Below are positions 4,854 to 51,497 of a stretch of DNA of 64,000 bases, one piece after another (the stretch's first letter is position 1; each line of letters opens with the position of its first letter). The notes under the pieces were generated by a model. That model was not told where the DNA came from. It made no database searches and was given only the letters and a program-made list of their open reading frames with translations. Position numbers and translations under genes: made by a program. This stretch comes from Escherichia phage dhabil, in sequence record MN850621.1. One strand, given 5' to 3'.

Positions 4854-4927
4854 TGGTGGCCCTGGGTGGAATCGAACCACCATCCAGCGATTATGAGTCG
4901 CTCGCTTGACCGTCCAGCTACAGGGCC
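4854..4927 (-). tRNA. tRNA with CAU anticodon (Met, or Ile if lysidine-modified), CCA encoded
   Basis: Manual fold: acceptor GGCCCTG/CAGGGCC, anticodon stem AGCGA/TCGCT with loop CTCATAA, T-arm GGTGG-TTCGATT-CCACC. Confidence 0.75.
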
Positions 4928-5012
4928 TTAATTCTATTATGAAAGGCTCTTTGAGGGAAGAACCTTTGGTAATAGAGGGTATTAATGATAGAGTAATAAT
5001 ATCACATAATTC

Positions 5013-5297
5013 TTAAAGCATATTAATATAGTCAAGTTTAATAGAAGCAATCTTCAAAGGGTTTTTAAAGATGTCGTATTCGACCAATCCATTTTCAGTT
5101 GCGGTATAAAAAGTAAAGTTAACAGAATTATAGCGATGGCTGTTAACTTTGAGTTTAACATCGCTTGAACTACGGCCAATATTAACCTGTTGAACATCAA
5201 GCACGGCATCTTTGCCGTAATTTCGAATCAACAACTCGGCTGCAACCTGATCGGATTTATAGCCATTCTCTGGATTAGTAACCTTAACGTATAACAT
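5013..5297 (-). CDS. hypothetical protein (94 aa)
   Basis: ORF track; abuts the upstream gene end. Confidence 0.5.
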   Translation of the reverse strand: MLYVKVTNPENGYKSDQVAAELLIRNYGKDAVLDVQQVNIGRSSSDVKLKVNSHRYNSVNFTFYTATENGLVEYDIFKNPLKIASIKLDYINML

Positions 5298-5678
5298 TTA
5301 ACCCTCGTCTACAATAGTGTGGGTATTGGCATTGACAATCTGCCACCAGTCAAAACGATTGGAACCGTAACAAGGCTTATTCTCGTTTTCTTTAATGATA
5401 TCGCGCAGTTCATCTTCAGTCGCGGCCTTTGCGATTAAGTCAGCATAACCGCCACGAGGATAATAGTTATCACCGGCAAAGAGCAAAAAGTTTGTTTTGA
5501 TATTCTTGAATTCTTCAAGAGTAATAACTGTTCCACCCGGTTGAACAATATCTACATAACTATATCCTAATTTCTGTGCTTCATTTACCGCTTCAAGCAG
5601 GGTGTCATGCGCCCACCCAATTTGGCAATCTGGTTTTTCAGATGGATTTGCTTGATAATCCGCATACACTTTATACAT
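5298..5678 (-). CDS. hypothetical protein (about 126 aa from MYKVYADY)
   Basis: Start moved to ATG at 5676-5678, which follows RBS AAAGGTGAG and overlaps the upstream stop (TAAAATG). Confidence 0.5.
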   Translation of the reverse strand: MYKVYADYQANPSEKPDCQIGWAHDTLLEAVNEAQKLGYSYVDIVQPGGTVITLEEFKNIKTNFLLFAGDNYYPRGGYADLIAKAATEDELRDIIKENENKPCYGSNRFDWWQIVNANTHTIVDEG

Positions 5679-5679
5679 T

Positions 5680-5877
5680 TTACTCACCTTTAGAGATTTT
5701 ATCCATAACGAAAGAGATTGAACCAATTAAGAATGCCACTACTAAAGAGATTATATTCTCGGAAGTTGTAAGCAAATCCAACATGAATCCTGCAAACATA
5801 CTAAAGCCAAAAGCAGTAACGGCGGCCAGTGCAGTAACATTTCTAATTAATTCACAACGTTTCATTTTATTCTCCAA
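5680..5877 (-). CDS. small membrane protein (65 aa, two hydrophobic helices)
   Basis: ORF track; ALAAVTAFGFSMFAGFML and [17 protein letters not shown] are TM-like. Confidence 0.5.
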   Translation of the reverse strand: MENKMKRCELIRNVTALAAVTAFGFSMFAGFMLDLLTTSENIISLVVAFLIGSISFVMDKISKGE

Positions 5878-5901
5878 TCACTCATTTGTTTTGATAGGGC
5901 T

Positions 5902-5930
5902 ATAGTATCATCACTAGAGCCCGTTGTAAA
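5902..5930 (-). promoter_or_regulatory. early promoter (TTTACA-N17-TACTAT, minus sense)
   Basis: Copy of the conserved promoter motif; inverted repeat GGGCT...AGCCC surrounds the -10. Confidence 0.5.
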
Positions 5931-5935
5931 TAACT

Positions 5936-6214
5936 TTAAAGTGCTTTTTTCAAAATATCAAAGTGCTTGGTGGCGATGTAAACGGTTTTCATTACAGAAG
6001 ATTCTTGAGCCGGGGAAATAACAATGCTCCCACCGTCTTTTTTAGCATGGTAACCGTCGCCCAGATAAACAGTACCTTTAAGTTCATCACCATTAAGACC
6101 GATAACCGGTTTACCTTCACGGCCTTTGTTTAGGGCTATAACTTCACTCATAACACTGGCTTCAGTGATAGGAGCCACTTTTTGAGATTTACTAAATTCT
6201 TGATAAGTTTTCAT
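5936..6214 (-). CDS. internal head protein (IPI/IPII-like, about 92 aa) with CTS MKTYQEF
   Basis: MKTYQEFSKSQKVAPITE N-terminus is a capsid-targeting sequence with an I-T-E cleavage context; the track's upstream MEIK start is less likely. Confidence 0.65.
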   Translation of the reverse strand: MKTYQEFSKSQKVAPITEASVMSEVIALNKGREGKPVIGLNGDELKGTVYLGDGYHAKKDGGSIVISPAQESSVMKTVYIATKHFDILKKAL

Positions 6215-6252
6215 TTTGATTTCCATTTGGTTAGTTTGTTTTTGATAGGCCT

Positions 6253-6281
6253 ATAGTATCATCACTAAAGCCCTTTGTAAA
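6253..6281 (-). promoter_or_regulatory. early promoter (TTTACA-N17-TACTAT, minus sense)
   Basis: Third copy of the conserved motif ...TGTAAAA(C/T)A...AGTGATGATACTATAG.... Confidence 0.5.
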
Positions 6282-6292
6282 ACATTTTTAAA

Positions 6293-7176
<884 letters not shown>

Positions 7177-7184
<8 letters not shown>

Positions 7185-7938
7185 TTTTATTTCCTAATAA
7201 TTTATCAATAGTAGTGTATAGTTCAGAAAGAGTGCCGTTATTTTCAATAACAACGTCACCAGGTAAAATTGGTAGACCCGCTTCAGTGATGTGCGAGTCT
7301 TGTACTTGACCGGTTTCAGCGCGAACTACATGAATAATCGTAGCACCCATCGCTCTGAGCGAATCAATTTCGTGTGTTTGACGAACATCAGGTACGACAT
7401 AGTATTTCGCATCAGAGTATATTTTATCAAAATAGTCTAAAGCGAACAACTTAACCCAATACATCTTATCAAATTGGTTAACAATAATATCAGTCCCAAG
7501 GGTCTGCATGAGACGACGTACTGACCAATTGTTATTTTTATTTATTACTTCAAATAGCTGGTCTTTTGTTTCTTCAGACAGATACTGGGCCGGGGTAAGA
7601 CCATAATGATATGCGATACGAACATCAATTCCTGGAATAGGAAGGATATTATTCAGCTTAACAATAGCATGTTCAAAAATATCAACCACATCATACGGTT
7701 TTAAAGGAATTATTTCTTCACGGTCATAACCGATACCTTCAAAACAATTAAAATCTAATTTAGGCATATAGCTACGGTCGAATACAGGGTCATCAGATAT
7801 GTATTCATAAGCTTCAGCCAGATACTTTTTAATAGGACCAGCGAGTTGGAATTTTACGGAATCCATATTCTCAATTACATAGTTAGCAACGGTATCCTTA
7901 CCGCTACGTTTGATTCCTACAATTGATATTAGTTTCAT
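7177..7938 (-). CDS. 1: deoxynucleoside monophosphate kinase
   Basis: P-loop GIKRSGKDT near N-terminus; size and position between 57A and 3 as in T4. Confidence 0.8.
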
Positions 7939-8528
7939 TATTTTCTCATAGATGGATGCATAGACATACGAGCCACACGTTGTTCGGCATACGAATCAAT
8001 TTGTGGACGACCTGTAACTATTGTACCATCTATTTCTACAGCAAACGACTTGAAGTTGAATGTTGCCGTAGCGATTATAGCAGGGTCAGAATCTTCTTTA
8101 TACGAGTATTGGATTTCCGATAAGTCGGATGGCCAACCGCCGTAGTAATGAATGCTCATTACGATTTTCTGTTTGTTGTTATCAAGGATATGGAGGGTAA
8201 TCGCTTCAGGCAAGCCTTTAGGATGCCAGGCTTCGGATTCATGTGTTACATAGTTGTTTAATGATAGCATCCATTTATAAACGTCCATCCATGATTTCAG
8301 CTCACGGTCTACAAGAAAGTTTACAATCAAGGGGTCGAATTCTACTGTAGAACCTGGCAGCTTAGCACGATGTATGCCCTGGGTCGATCCGGGGACGTCT
8401 GAGATAGGAATATGGATACCCGGTAGTGTTACATCTTGTACGTTCAATTTGAATGACTGCGTCATTCCTGAGTCACTAACCTCTAAGATAAAGTTGGTAG
8501 TGTTAGTTTGGTTAAATAAACCGTTCAT
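7938..8528 (-). CDS. 3: gp3 tail completion / sheath stabiliser protein
   Basis: Synteny (1-3-2-4) and size; start could instead be the internal Met at 8465. Confidence 0.65.
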   Translation of the reverse strand: MNGLFNQTNTTNFILEVSDSGMTQSFKLNVQDVTLPGIHIPISDVPGSTQGIHRAKLPGSTVEFDPLIVNFLVDRELKSWMDVYKWMLSLNNYVTHESEAWHPKGLPEAITLHILDNNKQKIVMSIHYYGGWPSDLSEIQYSYKEDSDPAIIATATFNFKSFAVEIDGTIVTGRPQIDSYAEQRVARMSMHPSMRK

Positions 8529-8610
8529 AGGATTCCTATATTGCTTAAGTCCCAGACAGTGTATAATGGTCCTAGGTCTATTCCATTCAATAACTGGCTG
8601 GGATAATAGA

Positions 8611-9261
8611 TTATTTTATAAATTCACGTAATCTTACAGGTGTCATAAAAGGCCATTTGGCTATAGTTGGTTTTATCCAGTATCTTTCATGACATGTAGC
8701 TTTAAACGCCCGAACCATATCCTTGGCCTCTTCTATAGTATCCACACCAAATTGTTCACAAGTTTTCTTTCTGGCTTTATCCCATCTCCGTTTAGCAAGC
8801 TCTGCTTGGAGGTCTTTATTGGCAAAATGGCCATTATTCCTGTTATGTGTGGTTCCTTTAGTAGGGCTCCATCCTCGTCCCTTTACAAATCCTTTAGGGA
8901 CAGGTTCGTCTGGGAATAATTTAATACACTTATCACCGTTATTATAATAAACCTTTCCGGTTTGGGTAGCTGTAATATTCTCAGAATGTTTACGTTTAAG
9001 CCACCCATAAAGCTTATTAGAACGACGAGGACCTTGAGTCATTGTCATAGCTGCAAAAGTTAGTCCAGGATGGCCCGGATGTATTTTAACTAATAGTTGA
9101 TGTGCCAAATAATGTTCTTCAGGGGTTAAATCAACTAGGTTTGTAGATTCATCACCTCCACCCATACATCTAGGTAAGATATGATGAGACTCTGTATAGC
9201 AGGATAGTGCTCGTCCTTGAGCACGTTTAATTAATGAAGAATATATTTTCTGGTAATCCAT
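8611..9261 (-). CDS. HNH-family homing endonuclease (free-standing, about 216 aa)
   Basis: HNH motif ESHHILPRCMGGGDESTNLVDLTPEEHYLAH; ATG at 9259-9261 overlaps the gene 2 stop (TAATG); sits between genes 3 and 2, which I recall as adjacent in T4. Confidence 0.7.
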   Translation of the reverse strand: MDYQKIYSSLIKRAQGRALSCYTESHHILPRCMGGGDESTNLVDLTPEEHYLAHQLLVKIHPGHPGLTFAAMTMTQGPRRSNKLYGWLKRKHSENITATQTGKVYYNNGDKCIKLFPDEPVPKGFVKGRGWSPTKGTTHNRNNGHFANKDLQAELAKRRWDKARKKTCEQFGVDTIEEAKDMVRAFKATCHERYWIKPTIAKWPFMTPVRLREFIK

Positions 9262-10097
9262 TATGCGTTCTTCCAAACTTTCTGAGCACTGTAACGCTTA
9301 CCTTTAGACATAAACTGCTGAAGAGGAAGTAGGGTTACGTTAGCCCAATCAGAAGGTTTTATCTCTACTAAAGGTCCCTTGATATTTCCAGGGATATAAG
9401 CCTTAATCATCGCGTCAGCACCAGCAAATCCTTTTACCTTACTCCAATCAATTTTTAATTTGGTCGAGTTCGTAATGGTAGGCGTACTCGCGTATTGCTT
9501 CAGCAATTCTTCTAGAAATTGTTGGCGTGCTTTAGGCGGAATATAGTGTAAGTTCAACCCATACATCAGATTATGCTTACCGAGCCCAAGATAAATGATT
9601 AAAGGATATTTGTCCCAGTAGGGTAATGTGTCCTTGTGTTTAGCATCATAGATATAAGCATAAAGCTTACCAGGAGATGGTTTAGATACCTGGTGTCCAC
9701 GAATTCCTTTCTTTAATGTTTCTGTAAACCATTTAGCTGATTTATTGTTTACAGCAGCGCCTTCGTTAGCAATCTTATCACGAATACTCTTTCTAAAACT
9801 ATTCACCAAAATTAATTGACGTTCGGCTTTGGTCAATTTATTGCCAGGTTTCTTCTGAAGTTTTTCGACCTGTACGGCAGTTTTAATTCGACTCGAGTAT
9901 CGAGACATCGCAGATGTAAAGCTAGAATACTTAATGCCTTTATCTTCAGCGAATTTCTTAGACGAGACACCTTTGGCCTTAGCTTTGGCATATTCAACAC
10001 CTAAAGCTATCCATTGTTGCTCTGAACGAGTAGGCTTAGAACCTTTTGTGGTTTCAGTGGCCTCATTGATGTAGGAAAATATACTCATCCTTTCCAT
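9261..10097 (-). CDS. 2: gp2 DNA end protector protein
   Basis: Synteny and size (278 aa) consistent with T4 gp2. Confidence 0.7.
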
Positions 10098-10534
10098 CCT
10101 AATTTTTTCAGTGAATGTTCGGTAATCAATCTAAAGTTGATACCCATTTTATCTGCGGTAGCTTTAGCGGCTTTCCACTTGTCACTATTCACAGACCAAG
10201 TATAATGTTCGTTAATATATCTCTTTTTAGCGGCAGTGGTCATTTTTACCGGAATCGCTGGAGGGTGGGTCTCTTTAAAAGGTTTGACTTCAAAAAAGAA
10301 TTGTTGACCATTATCAAACTTAACCCAGAAGTCCATATAATATCGACGTTTCTTTCCTTCAGCATTACAAAAATATGGAATCACAACCTCTTCTGAATTC
10401 CATTGGACTACATTAGGATGATTATCAAGCCATCTCATTAGCCATGCTTCCCAAGAGGAACGATATTGGATTTTCTTCCAGTCACCTTTATATTTTTGTA
10501 AGTTTGTAGGTTTAAATTTCCCTGAGTAAGCCAT
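10085..10534 (-). CDS. 4: gp4 head completion protein
   Basis: Synteny next to gene 53 and size (149 aa) consistent with T4 gp4. Confidence 0.7.
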
Positions 10535-10545
10535 AGTTGCCTCCT

Positions 10546-10553
10546 TATAAATA
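10546..10553 (+). promoter_or_regulatory. T4-type late promoter TATAAATA
   Basis: Exact TATAAATA 28 nt upstream of the gene 53 ATG. Confidence 0.6.
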
Positions 10554-10580
10554 TTAATATTATTTATACTCGGAGGCCCT

Positions 10581-11183
10581 ATGCTCTTCTCATTTTTCGA
10601 TCCTATCGATTACGAATCAAAAACAGTCAAGCCGGATTCGGGCTCATTAACAAATGCCGATGTATTGAGCGTGCCGATGACTGATATATTTAGAAATTAT
10701 AAAGAATATTTTGATAAAGTGGCTAAAAATTATACACTAAAGACTTATTATATCAATGGGGCCCCTCGTCCAGAAGAATTGGCCCATCTTCTTTATGGCA
10801 ATGTCCAATTATATTGGGTTCTACTTATGTGCAACAATATATATGACCCTTATTATGGATGGATTACCGGGCAAGAAGCAGCATATCAAGCGGCAATCCA
10901 AAGATATTCTACCGACGGCGGAAACCAGGTCCTTTACCATGTAAACGAAAAAGGTGAGAAATTCTGGAATCTTGTCAACACACCGGAAAATCCGTATACT
11001 TGGTATGATAAAGGCGATACAGAAAAACGTTATCCTCAATACGAAGGTCCATTAGCCGCAGTAGATATTTACGAGGATGCCATTCGTAAAAATGAATATA
11101 AGCGCGAAATAAAGATTATTGACCCTAATGATATTGAGTCTTTTATTTCTGCCCTTATTCGTGAAATGGAGAAAGCCCTCTAA
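10581..11183 (+). CDS. 53: gp53 baseplate wedge protein
   Basis: Synteny directly upstream of gene 5 (TAATG coupling) and size (200 aa). Confidence 0.75.
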   Translation: MLFSFFDPIDYESKTVKPDSGSLTNADVLSVPMTDIFRNYKEYFDKVAKNYTLKTYYINGAPRPEELAHLLYGNVQLYWVLLMCNNIYDPYYGWITGQEAAYQAAIQRYSTDGGNQVLYHVNEKGEKFWNLVNTPENPYTWYDKGDTEKRYPQYEGPLAAVDIYEDAIRKNEYKREIKIIDPNDIESFISALIREMEKAL

Positions 11184-12925
11184 TGATTAACATGTCTGAT
11201 AACGTAAGTTGGTTCGTCGGTGTAGTTGAAGACCGAATGGACCCACTCCAACAAGGTCGTGTACGCGTACGCGTATGGGGTATGCACCCGTATGAAAAAG
11301 TACAGGGCCCTGTAAAAGGCCTTCGTACGGAAGATTTACCATGGATGTCGGTATTAATGCCTACATCTTCTGCCTCTGTTTCCGGTATCCAAACCGCTAT
11401 GACTGGTATGGTCCCTGGTACACAAGTTTATGGCCATTTTCTTGATAAGTGGAAATTAAACGGGCTTGTCCTTGGTACGTACGGTTCAGCATCAAAACAA
11501 AAGGCAAATCCAAACGAAGGTTTTAGTGACCCTACAGGGCAGTATCCGCTTTATTTAGGTAATGATGCCGCTGCACTAAACCGAGGTGGTGAAGTTGGAT
11601 ATGATGCCACTTCTAACGTAATACAAGATGCAAACACTGATGTAGGTATTAATCCTGACGGTTTGGATTTAAGCCAAGTTAAGCCTGATGATAATCCTAA
11701 TTTCACAATAGAAAACATGCTTCATCGTGATGAAGGGCTTAGACTGAAGGTATATTGGGACACCGAAGGATACCCTACTATTGGTATAGGCCACCTTATT
11801 ACTCCACAACCTATTAGAGATATGACCCAGATAAACAAAATATTATCTAATCAAATAGGTCGAGAAGTTAAAGGTAATCCAGGTGCAATATCAATGGACG
11901 AGGCTTCTAAGTTATTCCAGGAAGACCTTAAAAAAGTTCAAAACGATATAGGTAGGCATAGTGTTGTAGGTCCGGTTTACAATAAAGAAAACCGTTCAAG
12001 ACAAATGGCTCTTGAAAACATGGCTTTCCAAATGGGTTTAGGTGGACTTGCTAAATTCCGTGGTATGCTCAGTGCTATGTTAATAGGCGATTATAAAAAG
12101 GCATTTGAGGAAGCTCGTAATTCAGTATGGTTTAACCAAACTAAGGGACGTGCCTCAAGGGTATCAATGATTATCCTTACCGGTAATATGGAATCATACG
12201 GTATTATGGCCCCTAAAGAAAGAGAATTTAATGGCCGTTCTTATAGGATGATTCAAACCTTTGCAGCCCCTACAAATTCAGACCCAGCCGACCCATGGAC
12301 TCCAGAAGATACAAGGATTCTTTTTAAAGAGCCGGATTCCAGTTATAAAGGCGAATATCCATATGTCCAAACCATGCAAACTGAAGGTGGGCATATCCAA
12401 GAATTCGATAACACACCAGGGCAAGAACGTTACCGATTAATTCACCCTACAGGTAGTTATGAAGAAGTTGCTCCTGATGGACGTAAAACTTCTAAGACCG
12501 TAGCCGACGGATATTATATGACCCAAGGCGATTCTAATACTTATGTTGGCGGTAATAATAAAGTCAATATAGGTGGTGATGAAACCTATTATAATATGGC
12601 AAACGTTCGACGTCAAACTGACGGTTCTGAAAGCATCCATATTCGTGGTAACGAAACCAAAACGGTAGAAGGCGACGGAACCCTTATTGTTAAAGGAAAT
12701 GTTACGGTTATTGTTGAAGGCAATGCTGATATAACTGTTAAAGGTGATGCAAAAACATTAGTTGAAGGCAACCATGATTATACAGTAAATGGAAACGTTA
12801 AATGGTCGGTAAACGGAAACGTTGATATGACCGTTGCTGGTAATTGGTCTGAAACTATGTCGACTATGAGTTCTATTGCATCCGGTCAATATACTATTGA
12901 TGGTTCGAGGATTGACATTGGCTAA
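11183..12925 (+). CDS. 5: gp5 baseplate hub / cell-puncturing protein with lysozyme domain
   Basis: Lysozyme block DEGLRLKVYWDTEGYPTIGIGHLI; C-terminal VxGxxxV beta-helix repeats; 580 aa. Confidence 0.9.
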   Translation: MINMSDNVSWFVGVVEDRMDPLQQGRVRVRVWGMHPYEKVQGPVKGLRTEDLPWMSVLMPTSSASVSGIQTAMTGMVPGTQVYGHFLDKWKLNGLVLGTYGSASKQKANPNEGFSDPTGQYPLYLGNDAAALNRGGEVGYDATSNVIQDANTDVGINPDGLDLSQVKPDDNPNFTIENMLHRDEGLRLKVYWDTEGYPTIGIGHLITPQPIRDMTQINKILSNQIGREVKGNPGAISMDEASKLFQEDLKKVQNDIGRHSVVGPVYNKENRSRQMALENMAFQMGLGGLAKFRGMLSAMLIGDYKKAFEEARNSVWFNQTKGRASRVSMIILTGNMESYGIMAPKEREFNGRSYRMIQTFAAPTNSDPADPWTPEDTRILFKEPDSSYKGEYPYVQTMQTEGGHIQEFDNTPGQERYRLIHPTGSYEEVAPDGRKTSKTVADGYYMTQGDSNTYVGGNNKVNIGGDETYYNMANVRRQTDGSESIHIRGNETKTVEGDGTLIVKGNVTVIVEGNADITVKGDAKTLVEGNHDYTVNGNVKWSVNGNVDMTVAGNWSETMSTMSSIASGQYTIDGSRIDIG

Positions 12926-12935
12926 TATTTTACCT

Positions 12936-13457
12936 ATGAGCACTGATTTAGGAGACTCCATGGAAGGAGCCTCAATCGATGTTACGTTTACCGCTCAATT
13001 AGAAACAAACGAAACATTAGTTGAAATAAATATAACAGAATATGAGCCAACAGAAGGCATTATTGTCGATGGGGCTCGTTTATACGGAACCTATGAATCG
13101 GTATTTGGATTCTCTGAAGATGCGTTAAAATATCGATTAGGTGATGAATTTAAAACAGCAGGTTCATGGAAAGATTTACCAGAGGACAAGAGCACTCAAT
13201 TATACCTCTGGAAAGCCCCTGGTAATCTTCAGAAGACTTTTTCCTATACTGTCACATTAATCTATGACTTTCAGGAAGAGTCATCAGGAGGTGATACAGG
13301 GAGCTCAGGAGGAAGTAATTCTAGAGCCGGTAGCGAAACCGACCCTCCTCCAGCACCAGTAAGAAAAACCCTTACTAAGGTTTATACCAAGGTTATAGTG
13401 GGTAATTGGAGCAAATGGGCTAATCAACTCAGAGAATATGTATATGCGAGGCCATAA
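12936..13457 (+). CDS. 5.1: gp5.1-like protein
   Basis: ORF between 5 and 5.4; start set at first ATG after the gene 5 stop (alternative ATG at 12960 has RBS AGGAGA). Confidence 0.55.
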
Positions 13458-31946: not shown

Positions 31947-33929
31947 ATGGCTTTATTATCACCGGGCATTGAGCTCAAAGAAACGTCCGTACAGAGTACT
32001 GTCGTTCGTAACGCAACGGGTCGTGCAGCGCTGGTAGGTAAATTCCAGTGGGGCCCTGCTTTCCAGGTAACTCAGATTACTAATGAAGTTGAACTGGTTG
32101 ATTTATTTGGAGGTCCTAATAACGAAGTAGCAGATTACTTTATGTCTGGTATGAACTTCCTCCAGTATGGTAATGACCTTCGCACAGTTCGTGTTGTTAG
32201 TCGCGAATTTGCTAAAAACGCATCTCCTATCGCTGGTAACATTGAGACCACTATTACTACGGCCGGTTCCAACTATGCAGTAGGCGATAAAATCAATATT
32301 AAATATAACCAAACTGTAGTCGAATCTGAAGGTCGTGTGACTTCTGTAGATACAGACGGTAAAATTCTTTCCGTGTTTATTCCGTCAGCAAAAATTATTG
32401 CTTATGCACGTTCTTTAAACCAGTATCCTACCCTTGGCCCAGCTTGGACCGCTGAAGTTACTTCTGCATCTTCCGGTGTTTCTGGTACTATTACCGTAGG
32501 TAAAATTGTTACGGATTCCGGTATTCTTTTGACTGAAGCAGAGAATAGTGAAGAAGCTATTACTTCTCTTGAATTCCAAGCTTCTCTTAAGAAATTTGCT
32601 ATGCCAGGCGTAGTGGCTCTTTATCCTGGTGAAATTGGTTCTACTCTGGAAGTAGAAATCGTTTCCAAAGCCGCTTATGATGCTGGTTCTTCTAAAATGC
32701 TGGATATTTATCCTGGCGGCGGTACCCGTGCTTCTATTGCCAAGGCAGTATTTAATTACGGACCACAAACAGATGACCAATACGCAATTATTGTTCGTCG
32801 CGATGGCGCTATCGTAGAATCTGTCGTACTTTCTACCAAAGAAGGTGAAAAAGACGTTTACGGTAATAACATTTATCTTGACGACTATTTCGCTAAAGGT
32901 ACTTCCAACTATATTTTTGCTACCTCTTTGAACTGGCCTAAAGGCTTCAGCGGTATCATTAATCTGATGGGCGGTGTTTCTGCTAACGATAAAGTTACTG
33001 CAGGCGATTTGATGCAAGGTTGGGATTTGTTTGCCGATCGTGAAGCACTCCATATTAACCTGCTTATTGCCGGTGCTGTTGCTGGTGAAGGCGACGAAGT
33101 GGCTTCTACTGTTCAGAAACACGTTGTGAGTATTGCTGATGAACGTCAGGATTGCTTAGCATTTATTTCTCCTCCTAAAGGACTGTTGGTTAACGTTCCA
33201 CTGACTCGTGCAGTAGATAACCTTATTGACTGGCGTACCGGTGCTGGTAATTTCGATGCCAACAACATGAACATCAGTACCACTTATGCTGCTATTGATG
33301 GTAACTATAAATATCAGTATGACAAATATAATGACGTAAACCGTTGGGTACCACTGGCTGCTGATATGGCTGGTTTGTGTGCACGTACTGATGATGTGTC
33401 TCAGCCTTGGATGTCTCCTGCTGGTTATAACCGTGGTCAGATTCTTAACGTTCTGAAATTGGCAATTGAACCACGCCAAGCACAACGCGACCGCATGTAC
33501 CAGGAAGCTATTAACCCAGTTGTTGGTTTTGCTGGTGGTGATGGTTTCGTATTGTTTGGTGATAAGACTGCAACTAAAGTTCCATCTCCGATGGACCACA
33601 TTAACGTTCGCCGTCTGTTCAACATGCTTAAGAAAAATATCGGTGATGCCTCTAAATATAAACTGTTTGAATTGAACGATAACTTCACTCGTTCAAGCTT
33701 CCGTATGGAAGTTTCTCAGTACTTAGATGGTATTAAGGCACTTGGTGGGATTTATGAAGGACGTGTGGTTTGTGATACTACAGTGAACACCCCTGCGGTT
33801 ATCGACCGTAACGAGTTTATTGCTAATATATACGTAAAACCTTCTCGTTCTATTAACTACATCACGTTGAACTTCGTTGCAACGAGCACTGGTGCTGATT
33901 TTGATGAATTGATTGGACCTTTAGTATAA
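31947..33929 (+). CDS. 18: tail sheath protein
   Basis: N-terminus MALLSPGIELKETSVQSTVV...GKFQWGPAFQ matches recalled T4 gp18; 660 aa. Confidence 0.95.
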   Translation: MALLSPGIELKETSVQSTVVRNATGRAALVGKFQWGPAFQVTQITNEVELVDLFGGPNNEVADYFMSGMNFLQYGNDLRTVRVVSREFAKNASPIAGNIETTITTAGSNYAVGDKINIKYNQTVVESEGRVTSVDTDGKILSVFIPSAKIIAYARSLNQYPTLGPAWTAEVTSASSGVSGTITVGKIVTDSGILLTEAENSEEAITSLEFQASLKKFAMPGVVALYPGEIGSTLEVEIVSKAAYDAGSSKMLDIYPGGGTRASIAKAVFNYGPQTDDQYAIIVRRDGAIVESVVLSTKEGEKDVYGNNIYLDDYFAKGTSNYIFATSLNWPKGFSGIINLMGGVSANDKVTAGDLMQGWDLFADREALHINLLIAGAVAGEGDEVASTVQKHVVSIADERQDCLAFISPPKGLLVNVPLTRAVDNLIDWRTGAGNFDANNMNISTTYAAIDGNYKYQYDKYNDVNRWVPLAADMAGLCARTDDVSQPWMSPAGYNRGQILNVLKLAIEPRQAQRDRMYQEAINPVVGFAGGDGFVLFGDKTATKVPSPMDHINVRRLFNMLKKNIGDASKYKLFELNDNFTRSSFRMEVSQYLDGIKALGGIYEGRVVCDTTVNTPAVIDRNEFIANIYVKPSRSINYITLNFVATSTGADFDELIGPLV

Positions 33930-34054
33930 TCTATTATCCCAGGCTGTAATATAAAGAACCTAAAACCATTATACCATGGGTTTGGTTACAGCGTACATCA
34001 CGTAGAATTGCGCCTGGGATTGATTAACTATCAGGAATATGATTTATCAACTGT

Positions 34055-34062
34055 TATAAATA
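34055..34062 (+). promoter_or_regulatory. T4-type late promoter TATAAATA
   Basis: Exact TATAAATA 41 nt upstream of gene 19. Confidence 0.6.
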
Positions 34063-34102
34063 AATTAATCAGAACGTTCCTGGTGTGGCCAGGAACTGAC
34101 TT

Positions 34103-51444: not shown

Positions 51445-51480
51445 GTTTCCTGTGTAATAACCATAGGACCATTATACACT
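51445..51480 (-). promoter_or_regulatory. possible MotA-dependent middle promoter for uvsY
   Basis: Minus sense ATTGCTGTTCA (MotA-box-like) followed 11 nt later by TATAAT. Confidence 0.35.
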
Positions 51481-51497
51481 ATTCATTTGAACAGCAA

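Follow-up and report, generated by a model that had tools for sequence, protein, structure and literature searches.

Between the complete genes 2 and 3 of Escherichia phage dhabil (MN850621), a Dhakavirus, i.e. a JS98-like T4 relative, recovered from Danish wastewater in the same isolation study as phage dhaeg (PMC7552041), lies an open reading frame of 216 amino acids. An earlier note made from the DNA letters had proposed such a frame with an HNH motif at this position, and its presence has been confirmed, with the frame located on the minus strand and the motif corresponding to residues 24-54. The analysis covered a stretch of 64,000 nucleotides, hereafter referred to as the window, in which the following features can be delineated around the homing endonuclease gene (HEG):

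7177-7938, minus strand: gene 1, dNMP kinase (Pfam DNMK, E 1.6e-89)
7938-8528, minus strand: gene 3, tail completion/sheath stabiliser, 196 amino acids, with its ATG at 8528
8529-8610, minus strand: native intergenic spacer of genes 2 and 3, 82 bp, with the boxes ATCTATTATC and ACCATTATAC, outside the insert
8600-9338, no strand: putative transferred patch of about 740 bp, HEG plus flanking tract, from the three-way comparison of the window, dhaeg and the metagenomic contig L070
8611-9261, minus strand: free-standing HNH homing endonuclease gene of the Mob family, 216 amino acids plus stop (open reading frame, PHROG, identical annotated protein, dN/dS)
8614-8961, minus strand: site-specific C-terminal region, residues 101-216, presumed DNA-binding module
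8962-9261, minus strand: N-terminal nuclease domain, residues 1-100, common to T4 MobB/MobE and hundreds of phage Mob-like genes
9100-9192, minus strand: HNH motif ESHHILPRCMGGGDESTNLVDLTPEEHYLAH, residues 24-54 (E24, H26, H27, N41, H50, H54), from invariant alignment columns
9259-9263, minus strand: TAATG, stop of gene 2 and start of the HEG with a one-base overlap, probable translational coupling (sequence)
9261-10088, minus strand: gene 2, DNA end protector, 275 amino acids from the homologue-supported ATG at 10088
9262-9353, minus strand: 3' end of gene 2 that was co-converted, with markers of donor type at 9276-9336; predicted to contain the target of the endonuclease and the immunity polymorphism, from the mismatch cluster
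10085-10534, minus strand: gene 4
10561-10568, minus strand: TATAAATA, T4 late-promoter consensus upstream of gene 4, with no further copy ahead of the HEG on the same strand

Genes 53 and 5 come next on the plus strand. The homologues of the flanking genes are annotated as gp1, gp3, gp2 and gp4 in relatives, and Pfam assigned PF26869 (Phage_T4_gp2) and, for gp3, PF23849 on a contig with the identical HEG protein. The HEG itself extends from the ATG at 9261-9259 to the stop codon at 8613-8611; a mechanical list of open reading frames sets the start 15 nt further upstream at a TTG (9276), while every homologue starts at the ATG. The overlap of this ATG with the gene 2 stop codon, to which attention had been drawn before, is indeed found in the sequence, the TAA at 9263-9261 having one base in common with the start codon. 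No paralogue of the HEG was found elsewhere in the 64-kb window.

The HEG protein is assigned to phrog_655 (PHROG 655), 'homing endonuclease', with an E value of 7e-55 (PHROGs), and 1054 phage records were matched by tblastn. An identical sequence has been deposited as 'homing endonuclease [Escherichia phage dhabil]' (QHR72551.1), and gene, family and position are already known from public annotation, with RB32ORF146c listed since 2006. The N-terminal layer of similarity, spanning residues 1 to about 100-142, is 40-58% identical to mobB, mobE and Mob-like genes at other loci including HNH genes of ICP1, with 47.7% identity to T4 mobB over residues 1-99 and 40.4% identity to RB9 mobE over residues 1-142 (tblastn). 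Full-length matches are restricted to genes that likewise adjoin gene 2, the C-terminal part being confined to genes at the site between genes 2 and 3. The full-length protein identity amounts to 94-97% within Dhakavirus, 60-63% for P479 and ESh32 at the Tequatrovirus level and 51% for Serratia SP1, and positional orthologues show a DNA identity of 75% (Kosakonia 305), 71% (Serratia X20 and Erwinia Gravdalen) and 66% (RB32/RB33). Mob proteins have been described as a well-defined HNH domain fused to a distinct, presumably DNA-binding C-terminal region, encoded by promoterless genes (PMC2988022). Equally, the window protein combines an N-terminal HNH domain homologous to Mob genes with a distinct C-terminal region.

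In an alignment of 44 homologues, E24, H26, H27, P30, C32, G35, N41, E48, E49, H50 and H54 are invariant, and the conserved motif HH..P...GG...N..L....H...H supplies the histidine acting as general base, the asparagine and the metal-ligand histidine of the HNH superfamily. A loss of the catalytic histidine and asparagine residues, which was to speak against the assignment according to the earlier note, was looked for and is absent, as H26/H27, N41, H50 and H54 are retained throughout. A scan of the HEG open reading frame alone against Pfam gave no match at E<=0.1 nor at E<=1, NCBIfam yielded only a sub-threshold IscB HNH fragment and phmmer against the PDB found no significant match, so that a family profile was needed to reach the HNH motif of McrA (E 0.0033); with the same profile, the HNH motifs of Cas8-HNH and of a group II intron maturase could also be aligned. 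Furthermore, 40 of the 44 homologues match the Pfam HNH family (PF01844) at E<=1, the best at 8.7e-5, and the comparison with HNH families by hidden Markov models that had been recommended is thereby in favour of the assignment. In the predicted model of the protein, beta strands at residues 24-27 and 42-45 precede a helix at 47-60. The sequence evidence argues for a functional HNH homing endonuclease gene of the Mob class of T4-like phages, with an N-terminal HNH (beta-beta-alpha-metal) nuclease and a locus-specific, putatively DNA-binding C-terminal region, a reading to which, together with the homing mechanism set out below, a probability of roughly 0.8 can be given. The earlier note had reached the same homing endonuclease reading, and only its idea about the intergenic spacer, discussed below, finds no support.

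The occurrence of the gene among close relatives is sporadic. The earlier statement that genes 3 and 2 are adjacent in T4 is correct, since in NC_000866 gene 3 (75424-75954) is separated from gene 2 (76061-76885) by a gap of 106 bp in which nothing is annotated. RB32, on the other hand, carries the orthologue RB32ORF146c, annotated as 'similar to mobB; not conserved from T4 position'. The 2.25-kb region was matched by 92 phage records, and 51 of them reach Dhakavirus-level identity; the insert is present in eight of these and missing from about 43. In IMG/VR, three of approximately 50 loci holding both genes 2 and 3 contain it. The nearest relatives dhaeg and CLB_P2, with flanks 98.8-98.9% identical, are devoid of exactly 650 bp at this position, as are most Dhakavirus records, T4 is without the insert too, and the comparison with insert-free relatives that had been proposed as a check has consequently uncovered a presence/absence polymorphism. 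In the alignment, the HEG-less junction ...GAAGAACGCATAAT is joined directly to CTATTATCCC..., and the HEG-carrying arrangement reads ...GAAGAACGCATAATGGATTAC...TTTATAAAATAAT joined to CTATTATCCC...; as ATAAT occurs at both ends of the insert, the junction can be placed only to within 5 bp. Insertion has taken place at the upstream edge of the spacer, immediately behind the stop codon of gene 2. A sporadic distribution among close relatives, a fixed site and precise boundaries 650 bp apart are features in agreement with a Mob gene.

Annotation of the locus in public records is inconsistent. In SHP1 (KY979109.1), product names are shifted by one gene such that the HEG is called 'DNA end protector' and gp3 'intron-like endonuclease', in C6 (MW679410.1) the HEG is annotated from an internal ATG with 184 amino acids, and in 04086 (OR842557.1) it is unannotated. 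Different Mob-like HNH genes reside upstream of gene 4, probably in the gene 4/53 region, in the loci L022, L027-L029, L050, L051 and L060 of other T4-like phages (locus coordinates of about 640-1130, on the upstream side of genes 4 and 2), and another one is located between 5.4 and gene 6 in the CLB_P2 locus (L011, 11198-11875). The window is without Mob-like HNH genes at both of these nearby sites. Independent insertions of HEGs seem to favour the part of the late region around genes 4 and 2 as a hot spot.

The DNA flanking the insert carries the most informative signature. Between the window and the HEG-less dhaeg, 23 mismatches are observed over window positions 4900-13000 (about 7.45 kb compared), 15 of which fall within 64 bp (9276-9339) at the 3' end of gene 2 directly upstream of the insert, where an even spread of the 23 would predict approximately 0.2; the other eight are scattered. 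A search of the phage collection retrieved no donor, the best match being 93.1% for the HEG and 85.5% for the tract. An exact-protein look-up, in turn, led to the metagenomic contigs L070 (ENA) and L071 (Logan), which encode an identical HEG protein on a Dhakavirus backbone 6-7% diverged from the window and display only three differences to it across 8600-9338, that is a patch of about 99.5% identity; within the HEG, L070 is three synonymous bases apart. In the three-way comparison of the window, dhaeg and L070, 582 sites distinguish dhaeg from L070. The window is of dhaeg type at 563 of them and of L070 type at 14 of 14 contiguous sites between 9276 and 9336, while five scattered L070-type singletons represent private changes in dhaeg. 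One crossover is thereby located between 8599 and 8611 and the other between 9336 and 9354, and the acquired DNA amounts to 650 bp of HEG together with a stretch of gene 2 of about 61-92 bp and no more than 11 bp of spacer. The patch alters gp2 at three residues, V-M-M to T-L-L (9327-9335); the remaining 12 changes in the tract are synonymous, including a three-base TCA-to-AGT serine switch.

The simplest history would be a single event in which a dhaeg-like genome recently gained the HEG from a different, L070-like Dhakavirus, although the direction of the transfer is one that we infer. Such a natural patch on a dhaeg-type backbone is consistent with biased inheritance and co-conversion of flanking markers. 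On the sequence comparison, it is rather probable that the window and dhaeg constitute a natural before/after pair of one Mob-family homing event, that the near-minimal patch of about 740 bp restricts cleavage to the junction and roughly the final 90 bp of gene 2, with the gp2 V-M-M codons or their vicinity as the most likely position, and that the element has rewritten three residues of an essential virion protein.

A second mosaic block, unrelated to the HEG patch of the window, is located about 1.5 kb from the HEG in the region of gp57A (window 6954-7184). The protein has 76 amino acids in the window, dhaeg, CLB_P2, C6, SHP1 and 04086 and 81 amino acids in QL01, ABTNLS3 (L007, L009) and the metagenomic contigs L070 and L071, and about 50% of the bases mismatch over 7000-7100.

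As a comparison of two genomes alone is symmetric, the HEG might alternatively be ancestral in the lineage of the window, with dhaeg and CLB_P2 having lost it by recombination with a HEG-less phage. A donor for such an event would be available, as the dhaeg-type tract is common to more distant HEG-less phages such as IME281. However, two events with coinciding boundaries would be needed, the loss in dhaeg and CLB_P2 plus a separate recent transfer between window and L070, whereas one gain in the window accounts for all 582 informative sites. Furthermore, dhaeg and CLB_P2 represent distinct backbones with the same HEG-less state and tract, and a loss in dhaeg leaves the near-identity of the patch across backbones diverged by 6-7% unexplained. 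This reversed direction is considered improbable.

Slightly less credible still is that the HEG represents an inactive or decaying relic that was inherited vertically, with its patchy occurrence caused by repeated loss and not by mobility. Degeneration is common once a HEG has become fixed, shorter proteins are annotated for some copies (184 amino acids in C6, 143 amino acids in SHP1), and vB_EcoM_005, which is HEG-less on a HEG-positive-like backbone, looks like a case of loss. The sequences themselves, though, show little of decay. All eight compared HEG copies are intact and full-length without internal stops, the shorter annotations being start-codon choices, and dN/dS against six other Dhakavirus/Kosakonia copies is 0.05-0.08 for the N-terminal as well as the C-terminal half, with the seventh compared copy, L070, distinguished by synonymous changes only. 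The HEG is under strong purifying selection, and its catalytic residues are invariant. Equally, a HEG and tract about 99.5% identical across backbones 6-7% apart are incompatible with vertical descent.

Least plausible is a domesticated HNH nuclease which benefits the phage, for example in processing of DNA ends or packaging beside gene 2, in competition between phages or in anti-defence, instead of a selfish element: HNH proteins beside packaging genes can assist the terminase in HK97-like phages (discussed in PMC10448857), a T-even HEG is reported to assist in immune evasion (PMC13096335) and strong purifying selection would fit, but the gene is missing from most close relatives and from T4, all fully viable, has no terminase genes next to it, shares architecture and N-terminal domain with Mob HEGs and, in the manner of a homing element, moves together with a minimal patch. 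A terminase-associated HNH protein such as the HK97 gp74-like packaging factor was specifically considered and rejected, with genes 2 and 3 as neighbours and the gene missing from most relatives. Equally rejected was an intron-encoded homing endonuclease of the I-TevIII or I-HmuI type, as genes 2 and 3 are complete, the HEG-less junction is plain intergenic DNA and no Rfam match was obtained over 8300-9500 at E<=1.

With a mobile Mob-class endonuclease as the preferred reading, the patch can be used to delimit the target. In homing initiated by a double-strand break or nick, the co-converted tract spans the break and the HEG insertion site (PMC2988022, PMC2790892), and the predicted cleavage interval therefore comprises the junction with the last 90 bp or so of gene 2 on one side and no more than 11 bp of the spacer on the other. 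An independent pair, T4 versus RB32, displays the same asymmetry as the window and dhaeg: 17 mismatches are concentrated in the final 69 bp of gene 2, the 185 bp or so ahead of these are free of mismatches, and the gene 3 side has a single one over more than 300 bp. At the patch codons, HEG-less phages encode N-V-V-M-(M/L)-P, and HEG-positive Dhakavirus and Kosakonia phages N-V-I-G-L-P or N-V-T-L-(L/M)-P; codon -15 is GTA in six of seven distinct HEG-less Dhakavirus sequences and GTT in seven of seven HEG-positive ones. Exceptions to the codon pattern are vB_EcoM_005, HEG-less with IGL, and the HEG-positive loci L048 and L025 with VLL and VML. Because of these exceptions, the specific location can be given moderate confidence, and the endonuclease is reasonably likely to target the 3' end of gene 2 near the gp2 V-M-M codons. 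The candidate patch in gp2 resembles the situation of T4 MobE, where a polymorphic patch at the nick site is situated beside a conserved block (PMC2790892). A cleavage site across the gene 2 junction itself is possible, and one further into the spacer is unlikely as long as the donor resembled L070 at position 8599. The genome of vB_EcoM_005 was also considered as a second footprint and set aside, as its backbone is simply nearest to the HEG-positive group and the pattern is ambiguous.

The 82-bp spacer before gene 3 had been suggested to hold a remnant of the insertion or the cleavage site. The first part of this suggestion has not been borne out, since the spacer is the native intergenic region of genes 2 and 3, of equal length and near-identical sequence in the HEG-less phages dhaeg, CLB_P2 and JS10. 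The second part finds no support either, as the footprint implicates the 3' end of gene 2: markers of donor type end at or before 8599 and reach 61-92 bp into gene 2, which makes the spacer unlikely as the main target. Structured RNA was not apparent, with no Rfam family matched over 8300-9500 at E<=1, a z score of -1.05 for the single-sequence fold of the spacer and no pairs predicted by RNAalifold on 10 diverse spacers.

The spacer has features of its own. On the minus strand it opens right after the stop codon with TAATCTATTATCCCAG, followed about 35 nt on by GACCTAGGACCATTATAC. Both boxes recur in this order on the plus strand (33926-34102), directly after the stop codon of a 660-amino-acid open reading frame (31947-33929, probably gene 18) and before the next frame, and AGGACCATTATACACT recurs at 51466-51481, within about 51450-51490 on the plus strand. 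Five occurrences of ACCATTATA were counted in the window, compared with an expectation of 0.9. Ahead of gene 3, the CCATTATA box is conserved in T4 (L072), RB32, Mosigvirus-like and more distant T4-like phages (loci L012-L061), including phages with flanking proteins as low as 45-80% identical. This box may serve late tail genes as an element of regulation or processing or as a promoter-like one, its reverse complement containing TATAAT.

With respect to expression, a search for TATAAATA on the minus strand between 8529 and 10560 found none, and the box at 10561-10568 is the probable source of a 4-2-HEG-3 transcript. Because no such box occurs between genes 2 and 3, the HEG is placed inside the late 4-2-3 unit, with gene 3 read through the HEG. 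The HEG is intergenic between complete genes 2 and 3, appears promoterless and has a start codon overlapping the upstream stop, as found for Mob genes. Distant orthologues keep the overlap as ATGA or TTGA. In T4, nrdA and mobE share UAAUGA such that the mobE AUG overlaps the nrdA stop, and translational coupling has been proposed (PMC2988022); the suggestion that the overlap in the window serves to hitch the HEG onto expression of its host gene matches this arrangement. A GC-rich hairpin followed by a T-rich run (TCCGGGCCATCCTGGA CTAACTTTTG) at 9064-9079 on the minus strand, within the first third of the HEG from its 5' end, is reminiscent of the weak terminator described inside T4 mobE, and its sequence also codes for the conserved HPGHPGL motif. 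An internal terminator as in mobE was, however, rejected, as three terminator-like elements against 2.0 +/- 1.4 in shuffled sequences are not above chance.

Taken together, a mechanism can be proposed in which the HEG would be a promoterless cassette within the late 4-2-3 transcription unit, its translation probably coupled to termination of gene 2 at UAAUG. In a mixed infection with a related phage, the enzyme would introduce a nick or a cut close to the 3' end of gene 2 in the HEG-less allele of the latter, upon which recombination-dependent phage repair would copy the HEG with a short flanking tract from the HEG-carrying genome. The substitutions in the flanking tract would protect HEG-carrying genomes from the enzyme. 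In this manner, a dhaeg-like genome has probably acquired the HEG from a different Dhakavirus.

Among characterized systems, T4 MobE provides the closest guide. It is mobile and nicks nrdB at a polymorphic patch (PMC2790892). The N-terminal HNH domains are homologous (40% identity over residues 1-142 to RB9 mobE), and both genes are intergenic and promoterless, overlap the upstream stop by one base of their AUG and are sporadic among relatives (PMC2988022). Likewise, an essential flanking gene bears a polymorphic patch separating HEG-positive from HEG-negative genomes (PMC2790892, PMC2988022). On the other hand, the C-terminal region, the insertion site (nrdA/nrdB for mobE) and the target gene are different. 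The MobE target lies downstream, in the 5' part of nrdB, whereas the predicted target of the window HEG lies upstream, in the 3' end of gene 2, and MobE has an internal terminator, which is not discernible in the window at 9079-9064. RB32ORF146c is a positional orthologue between genes 2 and 3 in Tequatrovirus, but diverged and in another genus, and T4 MobB has the N-terminal domain in common but sits elsewhere, in the alpha-gt region, with another C-terminal region. To our knowledge, a target has been mapped for neither of the two. The 'site-specific intron-like DNA endonuclease' of QL01, ABTNLS3 and C6 is 94-97% identical and occupies the same site in Dhakavirus; the copies of the QL01 group differ from the window HEG by about 7-8% at the DNA level and possess IGL instead of TLL in the flanking tract. 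I-HmuI and I-TevIII belong to the same HNH catalytic class with a two-module architecture of nuclease and DNA-binding parts, yet reside within group I introns, while the window gene is free-standing between two complete genes with no intron-like RNA found. I-HmuI is a nicking enzyme like MobA and MobE (PMC2988022).

As an element of known kind, the HEG has little discovery value in itself. In contrast, dhabil-like and dhaeg-like phages differ at the locus by essentially one clean patch and offer a ready system for mapping the target of a Mob-class enzyme and the associated immunity; MobE could not be cloned (PMC2790892). The pair also illustrates how homing elements can carry amino-acid changes into an essential gene, in this case gp2. 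If the interpretation is true, target mapping and immunity rules of Mob enzymes, which are hard to obtain experimentally, could be tested directly in two sibling phages that stem from a single isolation campaign.
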